The position numbers and the translations under genes are program-made. A DNA stretch of 64,000 nucleotides from Escherichia coli (GTDB lineage Bacteria > Pseudomonadota > Gammaproteobacteria > Enterobacterales > Enterobacteriaceae): the NCBI RefSeq assembly GCF_003019035.1, contig NZ_CP027447.1. One strand, written 5' to 3'. This document shows positions 51-7,975 of the stretch, in pieces (within the stretch, counting starts at the first letter, position 1; every line of letters begins with the position of its first letter). The notes beneath the pieces were generated by a model. It was given only the letters and a program-made list of their open reading frames with translations, searched no databases and was not told the origin of the DNA.

Positions 51-1103
51 TCAGGCAATAGTAATTTTGCTATCGAGATAAACGTCCTGCACGGCGTTAA
101 TCAGTTTCACGCCGTCAGCCATCGATTTCTTGAACGCCTTACGTCCAAGAATCAGCCCCATTCCGCCAGCGCGTTTGTTGATAACCGCAGTACGCACTGC
201 ATCGCTGAGGTCAGTTTCACCGCCCGCAGCACCGCCGGAGTTTATCAACCCAGCCCGGCCCATATAGCAGTTAGCTAACTGATAACGCACCAGATCAATC
301 GGGTTTTCGCTGGTCAATTTGCTGTAGACGCGATCGTCGGTATAACCGTAATTAATCGCTTTATAGCCGCCGTTATTTTCCGCCATTTTTTGTTTAACGA
401 TATCTGCACCTATGGTCGCCGCCAGATGGTTTGCCTGACCGGTCAGGTCGGCGGAAACATGGTAATCAACGCCATCTTTCTTAAAGGCGGAGTTACGCAA
501 ATAGGCCCACAGCACTGTCACCATGCCCAGCTCGTGCGCACGTTCAAAAGCCGCAGAAATTTCTTCAATCTGGCGACGTGACTCTTCCGAGCCAAAATAG
601 ATAGTCGCCCCAACCGCCACCGCGCCCATATTGAACGCCTGCTCCACGCTGGCATACAGCGTTTGATCGTAGGTATTCGGGTAACTTAGCGTCTCGTTGT
701 GATTAAGTTTGACGAGGAATGGAATGCGATGCGCGTAACGCCGCGATACCGATGCCAGCACGCCGTAAGTTGACGCCACGCAGTTACAGCCCGCTTCGAT
801 CGCCAGTTCAACAATGTTTTTCGGGTCAAAGTAGAGCGGGTTAGCGGCAAATGAAGCTCCGGCAGAGTGCTCAACGCCCTGGTCAACCGGCAGAATAGAA
901 AGATATCCTGTGCCAGCCAGACGCCCGGTGTTGTACAACGTCTGCATATTACGTAACACCGCTGGCGGGCGATTATTGTCAATCATCACGCGGTCTACGT
1001 AGTCATGTCCGGGGAGATAAAGCTGGTCAGAAGGAATAGTCATACAACGGTGCTGTAAAAGGTTGTCGGCGTCTTTGCCAAGCAACTGCGCAATATCTGT
1101 CAT
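51..1103 (-). CDS. fbaB: Fructose-bisphosphate aldolase, class I (350 aa)
   Basis: ORF 51..1175(-); mature protein begins [20 protein letters not shown] as recalled for E. coli FbaB; internal ATG (1101-1103) chosen over the upstream in-frame ATG at 1175. Confidence 0.93.
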
Positions 1104-1359
1104 TACTATGCTCCCGTAAATTCCGATTGGATATCGGCTATGGATTGTCCTGGCCCGCCTTTTGCGGGCAATCATAATCCTGGTCGTTACGGGCGAGTTT
1201 TTCCATCTTTTGGATGTTTTTTCAGCGTTTTCTGTTGGCTCGATTCATCAGAAAAAATGTTACAGCGGTCAAGCTTTCACCGCAAAGGTATTTAAAAGGT
1301 ATTATTAAGTGGTATTGTCATCGCGTACCTTACATTACCTGTCATGAAGGAATTAAAAG

Positions 1360-2637
1360 ATGAAAACAACAGCAAAGCTGTCGTTCATGATGTTTGTTGA
1401 ATGGTTTATCTGGGGCGCGTGGTTTGTGCCATTGTGGTTGTGGTTAAGTAAAAGCGGTTTTAGTGCCGGAGAAATTGGCTGGTCGTATGCCTGTACCGCC
1501 ATTGCGGCGATCCTGTCGCCGATTCTGGTTGGCTCCATCACTGACCGCTTTTTCTCGGCACAGAAAGTGCTGGCGGTATTGATGTTCGCTGGTGCGGTGC
1601 TGATGTATTTCGCTGCGCAACAGACCACTTTTGCCGGCTTCTTCCCGTTACTGCTGGCCTACTCGCTAACCTATATGCCGACCATTGCGCTGACTAACAG
1701 TATCGCTTTTGCCAACGTGCCGGATGTGGAGCGTGATTTCCCGCGCATTCGTGTGATGGGCACTATCGGCTGGATTGCCTCTGGTCTGGCATGTGGATTC
1801 TTGCCGCAAATGCTGGGTTATGCCGATATCTCACCGACGAACATCCCGCTGCTGATTACCGCCGGAAGTTCTGCTCTGCTTGGTGTGTTTGCGTTTTTCC
1901 TGCCCGACACGCCACCAAAAAGCACCGGCAAAATGGATATTAAAGTCATGCTCGGCCTGGATGCGCTGATCCTGCTGCGCGATAAGAACTTCCTCGTCTT
2001 TTTCTTCTGTTCATTCCTGTTTGCGATGCCACTGGCGTTCTATTACATCTTTGCCAACGGTTATCTGACCGAAGTTGGCATGAAAAACGCCACTGGCTGG
2101 ATGACGCTCGGCCAGTTCTCTGAAATCTTCTTTATGCTGGCATTACCGTTTTTTACCAAACGCTTTGGTATCAAAAAGGTATTATTACTTGGTCTGGTCA
2201 CCGCTGCGATCCGCTATGGCTTCTTTATTTACGGTAGTGCGGATGAATATTTCACCTACGCGTTACTGTTCCTCGGCATTTTGCTGCACGGCGTAAGTTA
2301 CGATTTTTACTACGTTACCGCTTACATCTATGTCGATAAAAAAGCCCCCGTGCATATGCGTACCGCTGCGCAGGGGCTGATCACGCTCTGCTGCCAGGGC
2401 TTCGGCAGTTTGCTCGGCTATCGTCTTGGCGGTGTGATGATGGAAAAGATGTTCGCTTATCAGGAACCGGTAAACGGACTGACTTTCAACTGGGCCGGGA
2501 TGTGGACTTTCGGCGCGGTGATGATTGCCATTATCGCCGTGCTGTTCATGATTTTTTTCCGCGAATCCGACAACGAAATTACGGCTATCAAGGTCGATGA
2601 TCGCGATATTGCGTTGACACAAGGGGAAGTTAAATGA
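1360..2637 (+). CDS. yegT: Nucleoside:H+ symporter-family (NupG/XapB-like MFS) transporter, 425 aa
   Basis: Long hydrophobic polytopic ORF; GAAGGA RBS ~9 nt upstream of ATG; recalled as E. coli YegT. Confidence 0.9.
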   Translation: MKTTAKLSFMMFVEWFIWGAWFVPLWLWLSKSGFSAGEIGWSYACTAIAAILSPILVGSITDRFFSAQKVLAVLMFAGAVLMYFAAQQTTFAGFFPLLLAYSLTYMPTIALTNSIAFANVPDVERDFPRIRVMGTIGWIASGLACGFLPQMLGYADISPTNIPLLITAGSSALLGVFAFFLPDTPPKSTGKMDIKVMLGLDALILLRDKNFLVFFFCSFLFAMPLAFYYIFANGYLTEVGMKNATGWMTLGQFSEIFFMLALPFFTKRFGIKKVLLLGLVTAAIRYGFFIYGSADEYFTYALLFLGILLHGVSYDFYYVTAYIYVDKKAPVHMRTAAQGLITLCCQGFGSLLGYRLGGVMMEKMFAYQEPVNGLTFNWAGMWTFGAVMIAIIAVLFMIFFRESDNEITAIKVDDRDIALTQGEVK

Positions 2638-3638
2638 AAACAGAACGTATTCTCGGTGCTCTTTATGGGCAGGCGTTAGGGGATGCGATGGGGATGCCCT
2701 CCGAGCTTTGGCCGCGCAGTCGCGTCAAAGCACACTTTGGCTGGATTGACCGTTTTCTGCCTGGGCCAAAGGAGAATAACGCAGCCTGTTATTTTAACCG
2801 CGCCGAATTCACCGACGATACCTCGATGGCGCTGTGTCTGGCGGATGCGTTACTGGAACGTGAAGGCAAGATCGATCCGGATCTGATTGGGCGTAATATT
2901 CTCGACTGGGCGCTGCGTTTCGACGCCTTTAACAAAAACGTACTAGGTCCGACCTCGAAGATTGCGCTTAACGCCATTCGCGACGGTAAACCCGTTGCTG
3001 AACTGGAAAATAACGGCGTGACCAACGGCGCAGCGATGCGCGTCTCGCCATTAGGTTGTTTGCTTCCGGCGCGCGATATTGACTCTTTTATTGATGATGT
3101 GGCGCTGGCCTCCAGCCCGACACATAAATCCGATCTGGCGGTTGCGGGGGCGGTAGTCATCGCATGGGCGATTTCTCGTGCCATTGACGGAGAAAGCTGG
3201 TCAGCGATTGTTGATTCACTGCCTTCAATTGCGCGACATGCTCAACAAAAACGCATCACTACCTTCAGCGCCTCACTGGCAGCACGTCTGGAGATTGCGC
3301 TGAAAATTGTGCGCAATGCCGATGGCACCGAATCCGCCAGCGAACAGCTTTACCAGGTCGTTGGCGCAGGTACCAGCACTATTGAGTCCGTTCCGTGCGC
3401 CATTGCGCTGGTTGAACTGGCACAAACCGACCCGAACCGTTGCGCCGTCCTGTGCGCTAACCTTGGCGGCGACACAGACACCATCGGTGCTATGGCGACG
3501 GCAATTTGTGGCGCGTTGCATGGCGTTAACGCTATCGATCCTGCGTTAAAGGCGGAACTGGATGCAGTAAATCAGCTTGATTTCAACCGCTATGCCACGG
3601 CGCTGGCGAAATATCGTCAACAACGGGAGGCGGTATGA
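2634..3638 (+). CDS. yegU: ADP-ribosylglycohydrolase-family protein, 334 aa
   Basis: ATG overlaps yegT stop (ATGA, translational coupling); recalled as E. coli YegU (ADP-ribosylglycohydrolase family). Confidence 0.9.
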   Translation: MKTERILGALYGQALGDAMGMPSELWPRSRVKAHFGWIDRFLPGPKENNAACYFNRAEFTDDTSMALCLADALLEREGKIDPDLIGRNILDWALRFDAFNKNVLGPTSKIALNAIRDGKPVAELENNGVTNGAAMRVSPLGCLLPARDIDSFIDDVALASSPTHKSDLAVAGAVVIAWAISRAIDGESWSAIVDSLPSIARHAQQKRITTFSASLAARLEIALKIVRNADGTESASEQLYQVVGAGTSTIESVPCAIALVELAQTDPNRCAVLCANLGGDTDTIGAMATAICGALHGVNAIDPALKAELDAVNQLDFNRYATALAKYRQQREAV

Positions 3639-4600
3639 GCGGCGCGCGATTACACACGCTGCTGCCTGAATTAACCACGCGTCAGTCGGTGATGGTCGTC
3701 GGCGCGGCGGTCATTGACGTGATCGCCGACGCTTATGCCCTCCCCTGGCGTGGGTGCGATATCGAACTGAAACAGCAGAGCGTTAACGTTGGCGGCTGCG
3801 CACTGAATATTGCCGTGGCGTTAAAGCGCCTCGGCATCGAAGCGGGTAATGCCTTGCCGCTCGGTCAGGGCGTGTGGGCGGAGATTATTCGCAACCGGAT
3901 GGCAAAAGAGGGCTTAATCAGCCTGATCGATAACGCCGAAGGCGATAACGGCTGGTGTCTGGCGCTGGTTGAGCCGGATGGTGAACGCACGTTTATGTCG
4001 TTCAGCGGTGTGGAAAATCAATGGAATCGCCAATGGTTGGCGCGATTAACCGTTGCACCTGGCAGCCTGCTCTATTTTTCCGGTTATCAACTGGCCTCGC
4101 CCTGCGGCGAATTGTTAGTGGAATGGCTGGAAAAGCTGCAAGACGTGACGCCGTTTATCGATTTTGGCCCACGTATTGGCGATATCCCGGATGCATTACT
4201 GGCGCGGATCATGGCCTGTCGACCTTTAGTATCACTCAATCGTCAGGAGGCTGAGATTGCCGCCGAACGTTTTGCTTTATCCGCAGAGATAACAACACTT
4301 GGCAAGCAATGGCAGGAGAAATTTGCCGCGCCGTTGATCATTCGTCTCGATAAAGAGGGCGCATGGTATTTCAGCAACGACGCTTCTGGCTGCATTCCGG
4401 CATTTCCAACGCAAGTTGTAGACACCATTGGGGCGGGCGACAGTCATGCCGGCGGCGTACTTGCCGGGCTGGCCTCTGGTCTGCCACTGGCGGATGCCGT
4501 ATTACTGGGCAATGCAGTGGCGTCGTGGGTTGTCGGGCATCGGGGCGGTGATTGTGCGCCAACGCGCGAGGAACTACTCCTCGCACACAAAAACGTATAG
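3635..4600 (+). CDS. yegV: PfkB/ribokinase-family carbohydrate or nucleoside kinase, 321 aa
   Basis: ATGA overlap with yegU stop; C-terminal DTIGAGDSHAGG motif typical of PfkB kinases. Confidence 0.9.
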   Translation: MSGARLHTLLPELTTRQSVMVVGAAVIDVIADAYALPWRGCDIELKQQSVNVGGCALNIAVALKRLGIEAGNALPLGQGVWAEIIRNRMAKEGLISLIDNAEGDNGWCLALVEPDGERTFMSFSGVENQWNRQWLARLTVAPGSLLYFSGYQLASPCGELLVEWLEKLQDVTPFIDFGPRIGDIPDALLARIMACRPLVSLNRQEAEIAAERFALSAEITTLGKQWQEKFAAPLIIRLDKEGAWYFSNDASGCIPAFPTQVVDTIGAGDSHAGGVLAGLASGLPLADAVLLGNAVASWVVGHRGGDCAPTREELLLAHKNV

Positions 4601-5320
4601 ATCGCTGCGACAGTGGCTGATGCTGTACTCAATAGGCCGTTGCTGTTGGTCAAGCGCCACTTGCTTGATCACCAGCACCGGTATTTTGCTATCTAACTGA
4701 ATATGTGACTGAAACTCGGCATCCGGCATCCGGGCGCTAACGCGGGAACGCGTACGTTGTGGGTAAATGTGCTGGCTGCGGAAGTAGTCATAAAGAGAAA
4801 TCCCGATGGCATCAACATCATGAATTAAATGTGCCGGAACCCACGATTCCTCAATCGATACCGCTTCTTCATCGACATAGCGAATACGCTTAAGCAAAAA
4901 GACATCACTTCCCGCTTCGACCGCCAGCTGCTGCGCAACTTCTTCGGGACATTTCACGACACGCTTGTTAACCCATAGCGTATCGGGCTTTTTCCCGCGC
5001 AATACCACCTGCTGAGAAAAACCTCGCGCTTCTTTCAACGAGTATTCGAAGATGTTGTTGATCTGCGTACCGTAACCACGCGAACGCGTCACCACGCCCT
5101 CTTCTTCCAGCGCCTGCATCGCCTTGCGCACCGTAATGCGCGAAACGCCGGTTAACTGACTTAAATCACGCTCACCGGGCAAAATATTGCCATGCTCCAG
5201 CACCCCGCTGCGCACGGCATTTTTTACCGTTTCGGCAAACTTAATATAAAGCGGCGTGTTATCCGCCGCTAAAATACGTTCGTTCAGTTGGGCAATCAGC
5301 TGGGTATGCGCTTGTTCCAT
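4574..5320 (-). CDS. yegW: GntR-family (HutC-subfamily-like) transcriptional regulator, 248 aa
   Basis: N-terminal winged HTH (..LPGERDLSQLTGVSRITVRKAMQALEEEGVV..) plus C-terminal effector domain; 3' end overlaps the yegV 3' end by 27 nt (convergent). Confidence 0.9.
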   Translation of the reverse strand: MEQAHTQLIAQLNERILAADNTPLYIKFAETVKNAVRSGVLEHGNILPGERDLSQLTGVSRITVRKAMQALEEEGVVTRSRGYGTQINNIFEYSLKEARGFSQQVVLRGKKPDTLWVNKRVVKCPEEVAQQLAVEAGSDVFLLKRIRYVDEEAVSIEESWVPAHLIHDVDAIGISLYDYFRSQHIYPQRTRSRVSARMPDAEFQSHIQLDSKIPVLVIKQVALDQQQRPIEYSISHCRSDLYVFVCEE

Positions 5321-5371
5321 TTGTCTTTTTCCTGCCGGGGAGTCTGGTGGGAGTATATCACTGCTTCTTAT

Positions 5372-6190
5372 TTAAGGCGTTTCTTTAATCCCATCAACGA
5401 ATCCCTGCAACTCCTCCTCTGTGCCATTAAACACATTAAAATCCACCGGACCATTAATGCCATCTACCTGCCCACGGTCGGAATGCTGCCAGAAGCGCCA
5501 GGCCATGCCGTCATTGTCCGGACGACGTTGATAGTAGTGAGCCACCCACCACGGATATTCATTGAAATAGCCCGCCAGATTCGTGTGATAAAAAACGGCT
5601 CCTGAGTAAATAATCGGCTTTTTCCCCGTACTTTTTTCGACCATTTTTAGCCACTGACTTACCCGCTTGCGTAATTCTTTTGCCGATAATTTTCCCCGTT
5701 CTTCTACGTCCAGCACGGCAGGGAAATCGCCTTGTGAGAAATCCACCGTTTGCAGAAATAATCTCGCCTGAACTGAAGCGGATACCGACGGGGAAAAATA
5801 ATGATACGCCCCGCGCAGCAGGCCATTTTCGCGGCTTAGTTGCCAGTTACGCGAAAAATAGGGGTCCACCAGCTTTTCGCCTTCCGTCGCCTTAATAAAA
5901 GCAAACTGTAAGCGGATACCGTTGTCGCGCATTTTTGCCACCCGCTGCCAGTCGATCCGCTCCTGCCAGCGCGAAACATCTATTCCGTGAATGGTGTAAC
6001 TGGCAGGAATGCGAATAGCAAAAGATTTGACTGGACGATAACCGTAGAAGTGGATGTAGTCTTTAATCTGAATTGCTGTCGAGTAGAAAAAATTCACCGT
6101 CTGACGCGGATAAATTGCAACGATGGAAATTAGCCCAAGAGCGCATAATAAAGCGGTGAATTTTTTTCGACTGGTGATTCTCAGCTGCAT
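5372..6190 (-). CDS. yegX: Glycoside hydrolase family 25 (lysozyme-like) protein with N-terminal membrane anchor/signal
   Basis: ORF 5372..6199(-); GH25-like protein recalled as YegX (272 aa); start set at ATG 6188-6190, alternative in-frame ATG at 6197-6199 gives 275 aa. Confidence 0.85.
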   Translation of the reverse strand: MQLRITSRKKFTALLCALGLISIVAIYPRQTVNFFYSTAIQIKDYIHFYGYRPVKSFAIRIPASYTIHGIDVSRWQERIDWQRVAKMRDNGIRLQFAFIKATEGEKLVDPYFSRNWQLSRENGLLRGAYHYFSPSVSASVQARLFLQTVDFSQGDFPAVLDVEERGKLSAKELRKRVSQWLKMVEKSTGKKPIIYSGAVFYHTNLAGYFNEYPWWVAHYYQRRPDNDGMAWRFWQHSDRGQVDGINGPVDFNVFNGTEEELQGFVDGIKETP

Positions 6191-6254
6191 TGGTTTCATC
6201 CCTGAATGTCAGCGCCAAAGACTGACAATAACCAAAGCAGCTATAGTAAGGTGC

Positions 6255-7840: not shown

Positions 7841-7975
7841 AGTTTGCTCCTGCCATAACGTGAAGAAGCAATGACCTGGTGGTCCGTGACTTCCCTACGC
7901 TGGCATTATCCAGATCAGGTGATACGGGTATTTCTCAGCCTTTACGCAGAAGGGCACCCCGAGTCGTTTGGTTGC
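7841..7975 (-). promoter_or_regulatory. thiM 5' leader containing TPP (THI-box) riboswitch
   Basis: Minus-strand leader reads ..GGGGUGCCCUUCUGCGU.AAGGCUGAGAAAUACCCGUAUCACCUGAUCUGGAUAAUGCCAGCGUAGGGAAGUCACGGACCACCAGGUCAUUGCUUCUUCACGUUAUGGCAGGAGCAAACUAUG, the well-known thiM TPP aptamer with CUGAGA box and SD-sequestering expression platform. Confidence 0.9.

Follow-up and report, generated by a model that had tools for sequence, protein, structure and literature searches.

In Escherichia coli, pseudouridine catabolism is encoded by a single operon that combines a nucleoside transporter (PsuT, YeiM), a PfkB-family kinase (PsuK, YeiC) and a glycosidase (PsuG, YeiN); the nucleoside is phosphorylated and then cleaved to ribose-5-phosphate and the base, with no further enzyme to process the aglycone. 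Here we examine yegTUV, an E. coli operon with a comparable set of genes, together with its convergent regulator gene yegW (ggaR), in a 64,000-nucleotide stretch of contig NZ_CP027447.1 (assembly GCF_003019035.1), which we call the window. A transporter, a kinase and a putative glycosidase again share one transcription unit without a further pathway enzyme. The locus itself is already known, as its operon structure, its repressor and the structure of its transporter have been published; in the literature searched, no substrate has been assigned to YegT, YegU or YegV. We propose that the operon forms an inducible and self-contained module that salvages or catabolizes a non-canonical riboside from outside the cell; in this module YegV would phosphorylate the 5′ position and YegU would then hydrolyze the phosphorylated compound. 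We give this scheme an even chance of being right. PsuG has the Indigoidine_A fold whereas YegU has the ADP-ribosylglycohydrolase (ARH) fold (PF03747), PsuT is a CNT transporter whereas YegT is a member of the NHS family, and YegV scores only 19.7 bits on the pseudouridine-kinase PsuK model NF007355 against a cutoff of 540. If the scheme is right, yegTUV would be a variant of the PsuT/PsuK/PsuG design with an ARH-fold glycosidase, a useful if not astonishing extension.

The same domain set occurs in Salmonella STM4065-4066-4067, which encodes a permease, a PfkB kinase and a putative ADP-ribosylglycohydrolase. STM4066 has been demonstrated to be an aminoimidazole riboside kinase (PDB 1TYY), and a ΔSTM4067 mutant is attenuated in the pig intestine (PMC3161100). 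YegV is not an ortholog of STM4066, since it matches 1TYY at 3e-5 and ribokinase at 5e-16, and YegT comes from a different transporter family than STM4065. Dougherty and Downs are said to have described in 2003 a GntR-type repressor, STM4068, that controls STM4065-4067.

Other systems share parts of the logic. In PnuC-NadR uptake of nicotinamide riboside (NR), a carrier works with a kinase, as we see in Firmicutes loci described below; in contrast to yegTUV, that kinase is NadR or Nrk instead of a PfkB protein, the E. coli operon uses an NHS symporter, and in the proposed yegTUV route a hydrolase follows so that the product would not be kept as a nucleotide. RihA/B/C with RbsK, and the Bacteroides rus loci, combine ribose release from ribosides with phosphorylation. 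The Rih enzymes have the IUNH fold, unlike YegU, and they act before the kinase; YegV is not a ribokinase equivalog. Some rus loci reportedly contain predicted ADP-ribosylglycohydrolases. ARH1, ARH3, DraG, Tri1 and MJ1187 share the fold and the complete two-metal site of YegU. What sets yegU apart from ARH1, ARH3, DraG and Tri1 is its context, a transporter and a kinase instead of an ADP-ribosyltransferase or nitrogenase, as well as its failure to reach any equivalog model. We found no report in the literature searched that links ARH-family proteins to PnuC, to riboside kinases, or to the catabolism of pseudouridine, dihydrouridine or NR.

Of the conserved operons in the E. coli core genome, yegTUV is one of those to which no reaction has yet been assigned. 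Its hydrolase-kinase pair occurs in at least five phyla, including the abundant gut Lachnospiraceae, and the look-alike Salmonella operon aids persistence in the pig intestine. Once the substrate of yegTUV is identified, models of gut bacterial metabolism would gain a nutrient or salvage route, the chemistry of the ARH fold would be extended beyond the reversal of ADP-ribosylation, and it would become clear whether a published connection with ADP-glucose and glycogen is a direct one. The question is directly testable: deletion of yegW makes expression of the operon constitutive, the three proteins are tractable, and YegT has already been crystallized.

A conserved hydrolase-kinase pair with exchangeable transporters

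A profile search for YegU homologs, in a collection with one genome per bacterial or archaeal species, yielded 79 loci, in which tblastn was used to count neighbors up to 4 kb from the hydrolase gene. The loci span Enterobacterales, Vibrio, Aeromonas, Gilliamella, many Lachnospiraceae and other Clostridia, Bacilli and Lactobacillales, and also include Negativicutes, Actinobacteria, Chloroflexi, Marinimicrobia and Melioribacter. A kinase of any kind is a neighbor in 68 of the 79, a YegV-like PfkB protein in 63, and a protein related to AIR synthase (AIRS; PF00586) in five. GntR/UTRA regulators are present at 49 loci, and 63 have at least one of four kinds of transporter. YegT-like NHS transporters (25 loci) are limited to Enterobacterales and the Vibrio group, NCS1 permeases (PF02133; 19 loci) usually lie between the U and V genes, and PnuC-family carriers (TIGR01528, 148 bits against a cutoff of 42.45) directly follow the V gene in 15 Firmicutes loci; ECF S-components were found at four. 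The conserved unit is a regulator, an uptake system, a kinase and an ARH-fold hydrolase, it is self-contained, and its uptake component is freely exchanged among unrelated carriers of kinds that usually handle nucleosides, nucleobases or vitamin-like ribosides.

The two enzymes are also joined in single proteins. ARH+PfkB fusions are found among the cluster representatives with either domain first. The PfkB halves of P0203, P0204, P0215, P0230 and P0251 score 172-214 bits on a YegV-family profile on which any solved ribokinase reaches at most 122, and those of P0187, P0194, P0200, P0207 and P0210 come from another subfamily; P0161 carries two ARH domains. As the fusions involve at least two PfkB subfamilies and both orders, they point to several independent fusion events. 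Two metagenomic contigs place such fusions beside uptake genes, one with a GntR regulator, an ECF transporter and a PfkB-ARH protein (L080), the other with an NCS1 permease and an ARH-PfkB protein (L083). The proximity of a kinase in 68 loci, taken together with fusions in both orders, argues that hydrolase and kinase are functionally coupled. In the literature searched, we found no earlier account of the conservation of the pair across phyla, of fusions in both orders or of transporter swapping; together these observations narrow the search for a substrate to ribosides.

In a variant of the module, PfkB is missing and a GntR regulator, an ECF transporter (S, A/A′ and T) and an AIRS-related protein accompany the YegU-like hydrolase. 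All five AIRS-related proteins stand with an ECF transporter or ECF components, and they carry generic source names, "selenophosphate synthetase-related" (JGI) or "AIR synthase related". We suggest that the AIRS-family protein may take the place of PfkB as a riboside kinase without being its ortholog. The alpha-ribazole kinase CblS presumably belongs to the same COG as these neighbors, which provides a lead only.

Neighbor clustering and a Pfam census of 130 flanking genes revealed no further recurrent enzyme family, and none that would process an aglycone. One metagenomic contig (L084:1-8079) carries in a row the genes of a Bmp-type ABC nucleoside transporter, of a PF04227 (PsuG-family) protein, of a PfkB protein and of a 692-aa protein made of two ARH domains; this hints at a link with the catabolism of modified nucleosides. 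We considered whether the PfkB protein of this contig is PsuK, and by NCBIfam it is not a PsuK equivalog; a 430-aa neighbor in L080, considered as a phosphopentomutase, belongs to the alkaline-phosphatase superfamily and is no clear phosphopentomutase. The quinolinate phosphoribosyltransferase gene nadC (277 bits, cutoff 198) lies upstream of the yegU homolog at two loci, adjoining it in Leuconostoc holzapfelii and a few genes away in a Blautia metagenome-assembled genome (MAG), which fits the PnuC association, although two loci are too few for a conclusion. An Rfam scan at the gathering threshold detected no riboswitch upstream of the module in 18 Firmicutes loci, most of them without a detected GntR regulator; the matches elsewhere in these loci were an unrelated thiamine pyrophosphate (TPP) riboswitch, signal recognition particle (SRP) RNA and RAGATH-18.

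The three proteins and the proposed order of their reactions

YegT scores 611 bits (cutoff 25.9; 1.3e-183) on Nuc_H_symport (PF03825) and 653.2 bits on TIGR00889 (cutoff 446.1), which places it over its full length in the NHS family, and it matches NupG (7DL9) with E = 3.7e-51. A crystal structure of YegT at 3.1 Å is available (PDB 8ZOJ; Xiao et al. 2025, PMC11979927), and our protein equals the solved chain over its full length apart from the engineered K267A and differences at three further positions. The residues with which NupG binds ribose, R136, T140 and E264, are identical across NupG, XapB and YegT (Wang et al. 2021, PMC8042404) and align to R131, T135 and E255 in YegT, with D315 as the protonatable Asp of the GxxxD motif in transmembrane helix 10. 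In our alignment the base-contact residues differ, in agreement with the published structure, where those of NupG are not kept (PMC11979927). In isothermal titration calorimetry (ITC), YegT gave no signal with uridine, adenosine, cytidine or guanosine (PMC11979927), and a 2024 transport study observed no uptake of uridine, cytidine, xanthosine or gemcitabine (PMC11241209). Retention of the ribose residues without the base contacts, along with the swapping of transporters among nucleoside, nucleobase and vitamin families, suggests that the substrate is a riboside.

YegU matches ADP_ribosyl_GH (PF03747) with 225.5 bits (1.4e-66), and its AlphaFold model is all-helical and confident (pLDDT 97.5). 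The closest solved fold is MJ1187 (E = 1.4e-29, TM 0.81/0.90), a protein of uncharacterised function, followed by a Thermus ARH-related protein, DraG and ARH3; Foldseek TM scores to MJ1187, DraG and ARH3 range from 0.70 to 0.81. No solved relative nearer than MJ1187 was found in the fold search, which consequently offers no clue to the ligand. The metal ligands of ARH3 (E41, T76, D77, D78, D314, D316 and T317) align to E24, T60, D61, D62, D280, D282 and T283 of YegU, and H182 aligns to H164. Across 40 diverse YegU homologs, D61, H164 and D282 are invariant and T60, D62, T163, D280 and T283 are conserved in at least 90%, while E24 does not appear in the list of conserved columns. With its metal ligands aligned, most of them conserved, and a confident ARH-fold model, YegU looks like an active hydrolase of this fold and not like an ortholog of DraG, Tri1 or ARH3.

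Such a protein could be a conventional de-ADP-ribosylating enzyme, acting on protein or nucleic acid in the manner of DraG, ARH1, ARH3 or Tri1, with neighbors that are functionally unrelated to it. The fold with its complete metal site would permit this, and YegU does match the DraG and Tri1 models weakly. These scores are far under the cutoffs, however (79.1 bits against 337 for DraG TIGR02662 and 69.1 bits against 490 for Tri1 NF041672), and F143 and Y149, which sandwich the adenine in ARH3, align to Asn and Val in YegU. The ATGA coupling of the genes, the conserved linkage or fusion with a kinase and the transporters all point to small-molecule metabolism, and no ADP-ribosyltransferase was seen among the recurrent neighbors of the yegU homologs. 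We therefore regard a conventional de-ADP-ribosylating role as very improbable.

YegV scores 192.5 bits (1.4e-56) on PfkB (PF00294) and carries the hallmarks of a ribokinase-like enzyme, which are invariant features of its family: the diol-binding D28, G53-G54, N58, N202 and E205 (the NxxE motif), and G266-A267-G268-D269 with the catalytic Asp. N202, E205 and the G266-D269 stretch are invariant or nearly so in 33 members of the YegV family. These features would suit a different order of events, in which YegU cuts the riboside to free ribose and aglycone and YegV, as a dedicated ribokinase, feeds the ribose into the pentose-phosphate pathway, much as in RihA/B/C with RbsK or in the Bacteroides ribose-utilization loci. 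In keeping with this order, the best solved relatives of the YegV-family profile are ribokinases, aligned over their full length at ~1e-34, the ribose-diol Asp, GG motif, Asn and catalytic Asp are all present, and 11 loci have a hydrolase with no kinase nearby. Against it, YegV is below both ribokinase equivalog cutoffs (82.8 bits against 299.65 for TIGR02152 and 62.5 bits against 341 for NF008353), and ribokinase Lys43 (human K54) is replaced by a nearly invariant Cys55 in the YegV family. We had also considered a replacement of ribokinase Glu143 by an invariant Tyr151 and dropped this argument, because Glu143 aligns to variable position 152, leaving the Lys43-to-Cys55 change as the only residue substitution that argues against a ribokinase. 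E. coli already has the ribokinase RbsK, and given this enzyme a second one, linked and even fused to a hydrolase across phyla, is hard to justify. Taking both sides together, we think that hydrolysis before phosphorylation is unlikely.

We favor the opposite order, with the kinase acting before the hydrolase, for several reasons. Carriers of the PnuC type rely on a partner kinase to trap the riboside that they bring in, so the PnuC pairing suits a riboside kinase better than a ribokinase. The same is true of the replacement of PfkB, in five ECF-type loci, by a non-homologous ATP-utilizing protein of the AIRS family. The characterized ARH substrates all carry a 5″-phosphorylated ribose, and YegU keeps the metal ligands and H164. 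YegV is linked or fused to the hydrolase without being a ribokinase equivalog, and the PfkB protein of the Salmonella operon is a demonstrated riboside kinase. The sequence-only reading of this DNA had predicted uptake, cleavage of a ribosyl bond and phosphorylation; comparative genomics supports these three steps, and the order is more likely phosphorylation before cleavage.

In the favored scheme, YegT would import a riboside, composed of ribose and an unusual aglycone, by proton symport and would recognize the ribose through its NupG-like residues. YegV would then phosphorylate the 5′-OH, trapping the compound in the cell, and YegU, with its intact two-metal site, would hydrolyze the bond at C1′ of the ribose to give ribose-5-phosphate and the free aglycone. 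The order of reactions, the 5′ position, the products and the nature of the substrate are what we infer from these comparisons. More tentatively, and with a little less than an even chance of being right, we propose that YegU and YegV exemplify a widespread, unrecognized use of the ARH fold, as the glycosidase of a two-step pathway, riboside kinase first and nucleotide glycosidase second, that handles a ubiquitous non-canonical riboside, and not as an eraser of ADP-ribosylation. If true, a core-genome E. coli operon would be assigned, and an orphan activity such as nicotinamide mononucleotide (NMN) nucleosidase could be accounted for.

Several observations weigh against a riboside kinase followed by a nucleotide glycosidase. 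The activities of YegU and YegV in this scheme are inferred, the closest solved relatives of YegV are ribokinases, and the position equivalent to Glu143 is often E or Q in its family (Q in E. coli), making free ribose compatible with the sequence as a substrate. No kinase lies near the hydrolase gene in 11 of the 79 loci. Characterized ARH enzymes cut alpha-linked ADP-ribosyl bonds, and common nucleosides are beta-ribosides; this calls for either an alpha-riboside as substrate or an altered stereochemical preference in the family. The ADP-glucose ligand and glycogen phenotype described below are explained only as mimicry or an indirect effect. Finally, neither a riboswitch in the 18 Firmicutes loci nor an accessory gene among the 130 flanking genes indicates a particular aglycone, and the weak hints that we do have are mutually inconsistent. 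The PnuC and NCS1 carriers and the nadC neighbors faintly suggest a pyridine riboside, for example nicotinamide or nicotinate riboside or a derivative. The analogy to STM4066 would suggest an imidazole riboside, the psuG neighborhood in L084 a modified RNA nucleoside such as dihydrouridine, and ARH stereochemistry an alpha-riboside, each no more strongly.

GgaR, its candidate operator and ADP-glucose

YegW has an N-terminal GntR domain (PF00392, 59.2 bits, 3e-16) and a C-terminal UTRA domain (PF07702, 125.1 bits, 2e-36), in line with the GntR/HutC class assigned to it from sequence. Using chromatin immunoprecipitation on arrays (ChIP-chip), gel shifts, Northern blots and RT-qPCR, Saito et al. 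(2024, PMC10819704) identified it as a single-target repressor of yegTUV and renamed it GgaR. In their ChIP-chip it binds one chromosomal region, the fbaB/yegT spacer, with a weaker site inside yegT. A single mRNA of ~3.3 kb was detected by both yegT and yegV probes, only on deletion of yegW (PMC10819704), which bears out the co-transcription whose absence the sequence-only reading had named as its refuting test. Derepression in the ggaR deletion mutant is ~30-fold (PMC10819704).

The same study proposed an effector, which the earlier reading had left to be identified: ADP-glucose at 10-100 µM frees GgaR from fbaB/yegT spacer DNA in gel shifts, and glucose and ADP do not (PMC10819704). This proposal, the renaming of GgaR with its single target and the YegT structure 8ZOJ are published points that the earlier reading did not include. 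Saito et al. also found that yegTUV mRNA rises ~3-fold in 1% compared with 0.25% glucose and that ΔggaR cells contain ~2x glycogen at 6 h; ΔyegV came up in a low-glycogen screen (PMC10819704). On this evidence YegTUV could act on or make ADP-glucose or a related ADP-sugar and promote glycogen accumulation, with GgaR sensing ADP-glucose. The glucose effect is, however, small beside the derepression in ΔggaR, just two control ligands were used in the gel shifts, with ADP-ribose, AMP, UDP-glucose and sugar phosphates not among them, and the paper does not show that YegT, YegU or YegV reacts with ADP-glucose, its authors calling the gene functions unknown (PMC10819704). ARH enzymes attack C1″ of ribose and not a glucosyl phosphate, and YegT is a proton symporter with ribose-binding residues. 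The module travels with uptake transporters across the 79 loci, and no glycogen-metabolism family is among the 25 commonest flanking families, so that none can occur in more than one or two loci. A direct role in ADP-glucose or glycogen metabolism thus seems improbable to us. We speculate instead, in keeping with a riboside pathway, that the phosphorylated intermediate may act as the effector, with ADP-glucose as a possible mimic of it, and that GgaR dimers on GGTAT boxes over the -10 region would keep yegTUV silent until the effector releases them.

The published work did not map the GgaR operator to the base (PMC10819704). In the window, a promoter-like site upstream of yegT (Table 1) has 9 of 12 consensus matches in a consensus scan, a kind of scan that by itself is weak evidence, and it falls within the 190-bp upstream probe bound by GgaR in gel shifts (PMC10819704). 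Three direct GGTAT boxes, spaced by 11 and 13 nt, overlap its -10-like TATTAT and are followed by two inverted TACC elements. This candidate operator lies inside the published high-affinity probe (PMC10819704), and over the whole window the density of GGTA/TACC peaks in this 70-nt stretch. Of the 25 Enterobacterales and Vibrio loci aligned, most keep the pattern AAAGGTATT-N2-AAAGGTATT...TGGTA-N11-TACC ahead of yegT while the flanks diverge; Gilliamella (L020) is without it. From this conservation, the boxes are likely the GgaR operator. A further pair of boxes inside yegT, spaced by 11 nt like the first two at the promoter, lies within the weaker published probe, which covers 571-869 bp of the yegT open reading frame (ORF) (PMC10819704). 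About half of the related species, Vibrio included, have the pair at the corresponding position; the conservation of the pair is ambiguous because it encodes a conserved peptide, FGIKKV.

Locus layout and flanking genes

Table 1. Coordinates of features in the window and of selected features in the compared loci
Feature	Position	Strand	Length	Description
yegT	1360-2637	+	425 aa	Mechanical ORF listing; MFS nucleoside:H+ symporter (NHS family)
yegU	2634-3638	+	334 aa	ADP-ribosylglycohydrolase (ARH)-fold hydrolase
yegV	3635-4600	+	321 aa	PfkB-family kinase, ribokinase-like scaffold
yegW (ggaR)	5320-4574	-	248 aa	GntR/HutC-type repressor; winged HTH and UTRA effector domain
Promoter-like site of yegTUV	1276-1305	+		-35 TTCACC 1276-1281, 18-nt spacer, -10 TATTAT 1300-1305
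Candidate GgaR operator	1284-1339			Direct [A/T]GGTAT boxes at 1286, 1297 and 1310; inverted GTACC 1325-1329 and TTACC 1335-1339
Intragenic pair TGGTAT-N5-AGGTAT	2166-2182			+806 of yegT
fbaB, mechanical ORF	51-1175	-		Begins 24 codons upstream of the annotated start (1103)
yegX	5372-6199	-		Annotated GH25 (lysozyme-type) glycoside hydrolase; adjoins yegW
TPP riboswitch	~7875-7971	-		Annotation of the identical RefSeq record; precedes thiM-thiD
AIRS/ECF variant	L064:3112-8197
AIRS/ECF variant	L079:3276-8984
AIRS/ECF variant	L066:6390-8972
AIRS/ECF variant	L053
AIRS/ECF variant	L060
nadC	L050:7082-7978			Leuconostoc holzapfelii
nadC	L070:4947-5801			Blautia MAG

The gene identities and families proposed from the letters alone for yegT, yegU, yegV and yegW are upheld by profile searches far beyond chance. 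Megablast with window positions 1000-6000 found a 100% identical E. coli chromosome, on which the genes are annotated yegT, yegU, yegV and yegW with products named as a nucleoside permease, an ADP-ribosylglycohydrolase family protein, a carbohydrate kinase family protein and a GntR family regulator. The stretch was matched in 5424 of 5426 complete E. coli genomes. None of the four proteins reaches an NCBIfam equivalog (specific-function) model in the June 2026 library, where, as in RefSeq, their names are still generic; the view that the substrate is not firmly identified still holds there and in the literature searched.

The overlaps described earlier can be read directly in the sequence: ATGA start/stop overlaps join yegT to yegU (2634-2637) and yegU to yegV (3635-3638), and the convergent 3′ ends of yegV and yegW share 27 nt (4574-4600). 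The 4-nt overlaps recur in most Enterobacteriaceae-type loci compared, and the yegV/yegW overlap is exactly 27 nt in all 18 such loci with a convergent, overlapping yegW. No terminator-like site was seen between yegV and yegW; with this and the 27-nt overlap, derepressed yegTUV transcription must read antisense into yegW. This could reinforce induction by positive feedback. The yegV-yegW pair is one of the "excludon" (overlapping-transcript) pairs supported by RNA-seq (PMC12288877).

The four genes lie between fbaB and yegX-thiD-thiM. With the annotated start of fbaB, the fbaB-yegT spacer is 256 bp rather than the 184 bp given by the mechanical ORF. The translation of yegX opens with a hydrophobic stretch; to our knowledge this is another uncharacterised gene, and it stands outside the conserved module in other taxa. 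The TPP riboswitch beyond it is an ordinary one, unrelated to yegTUV.

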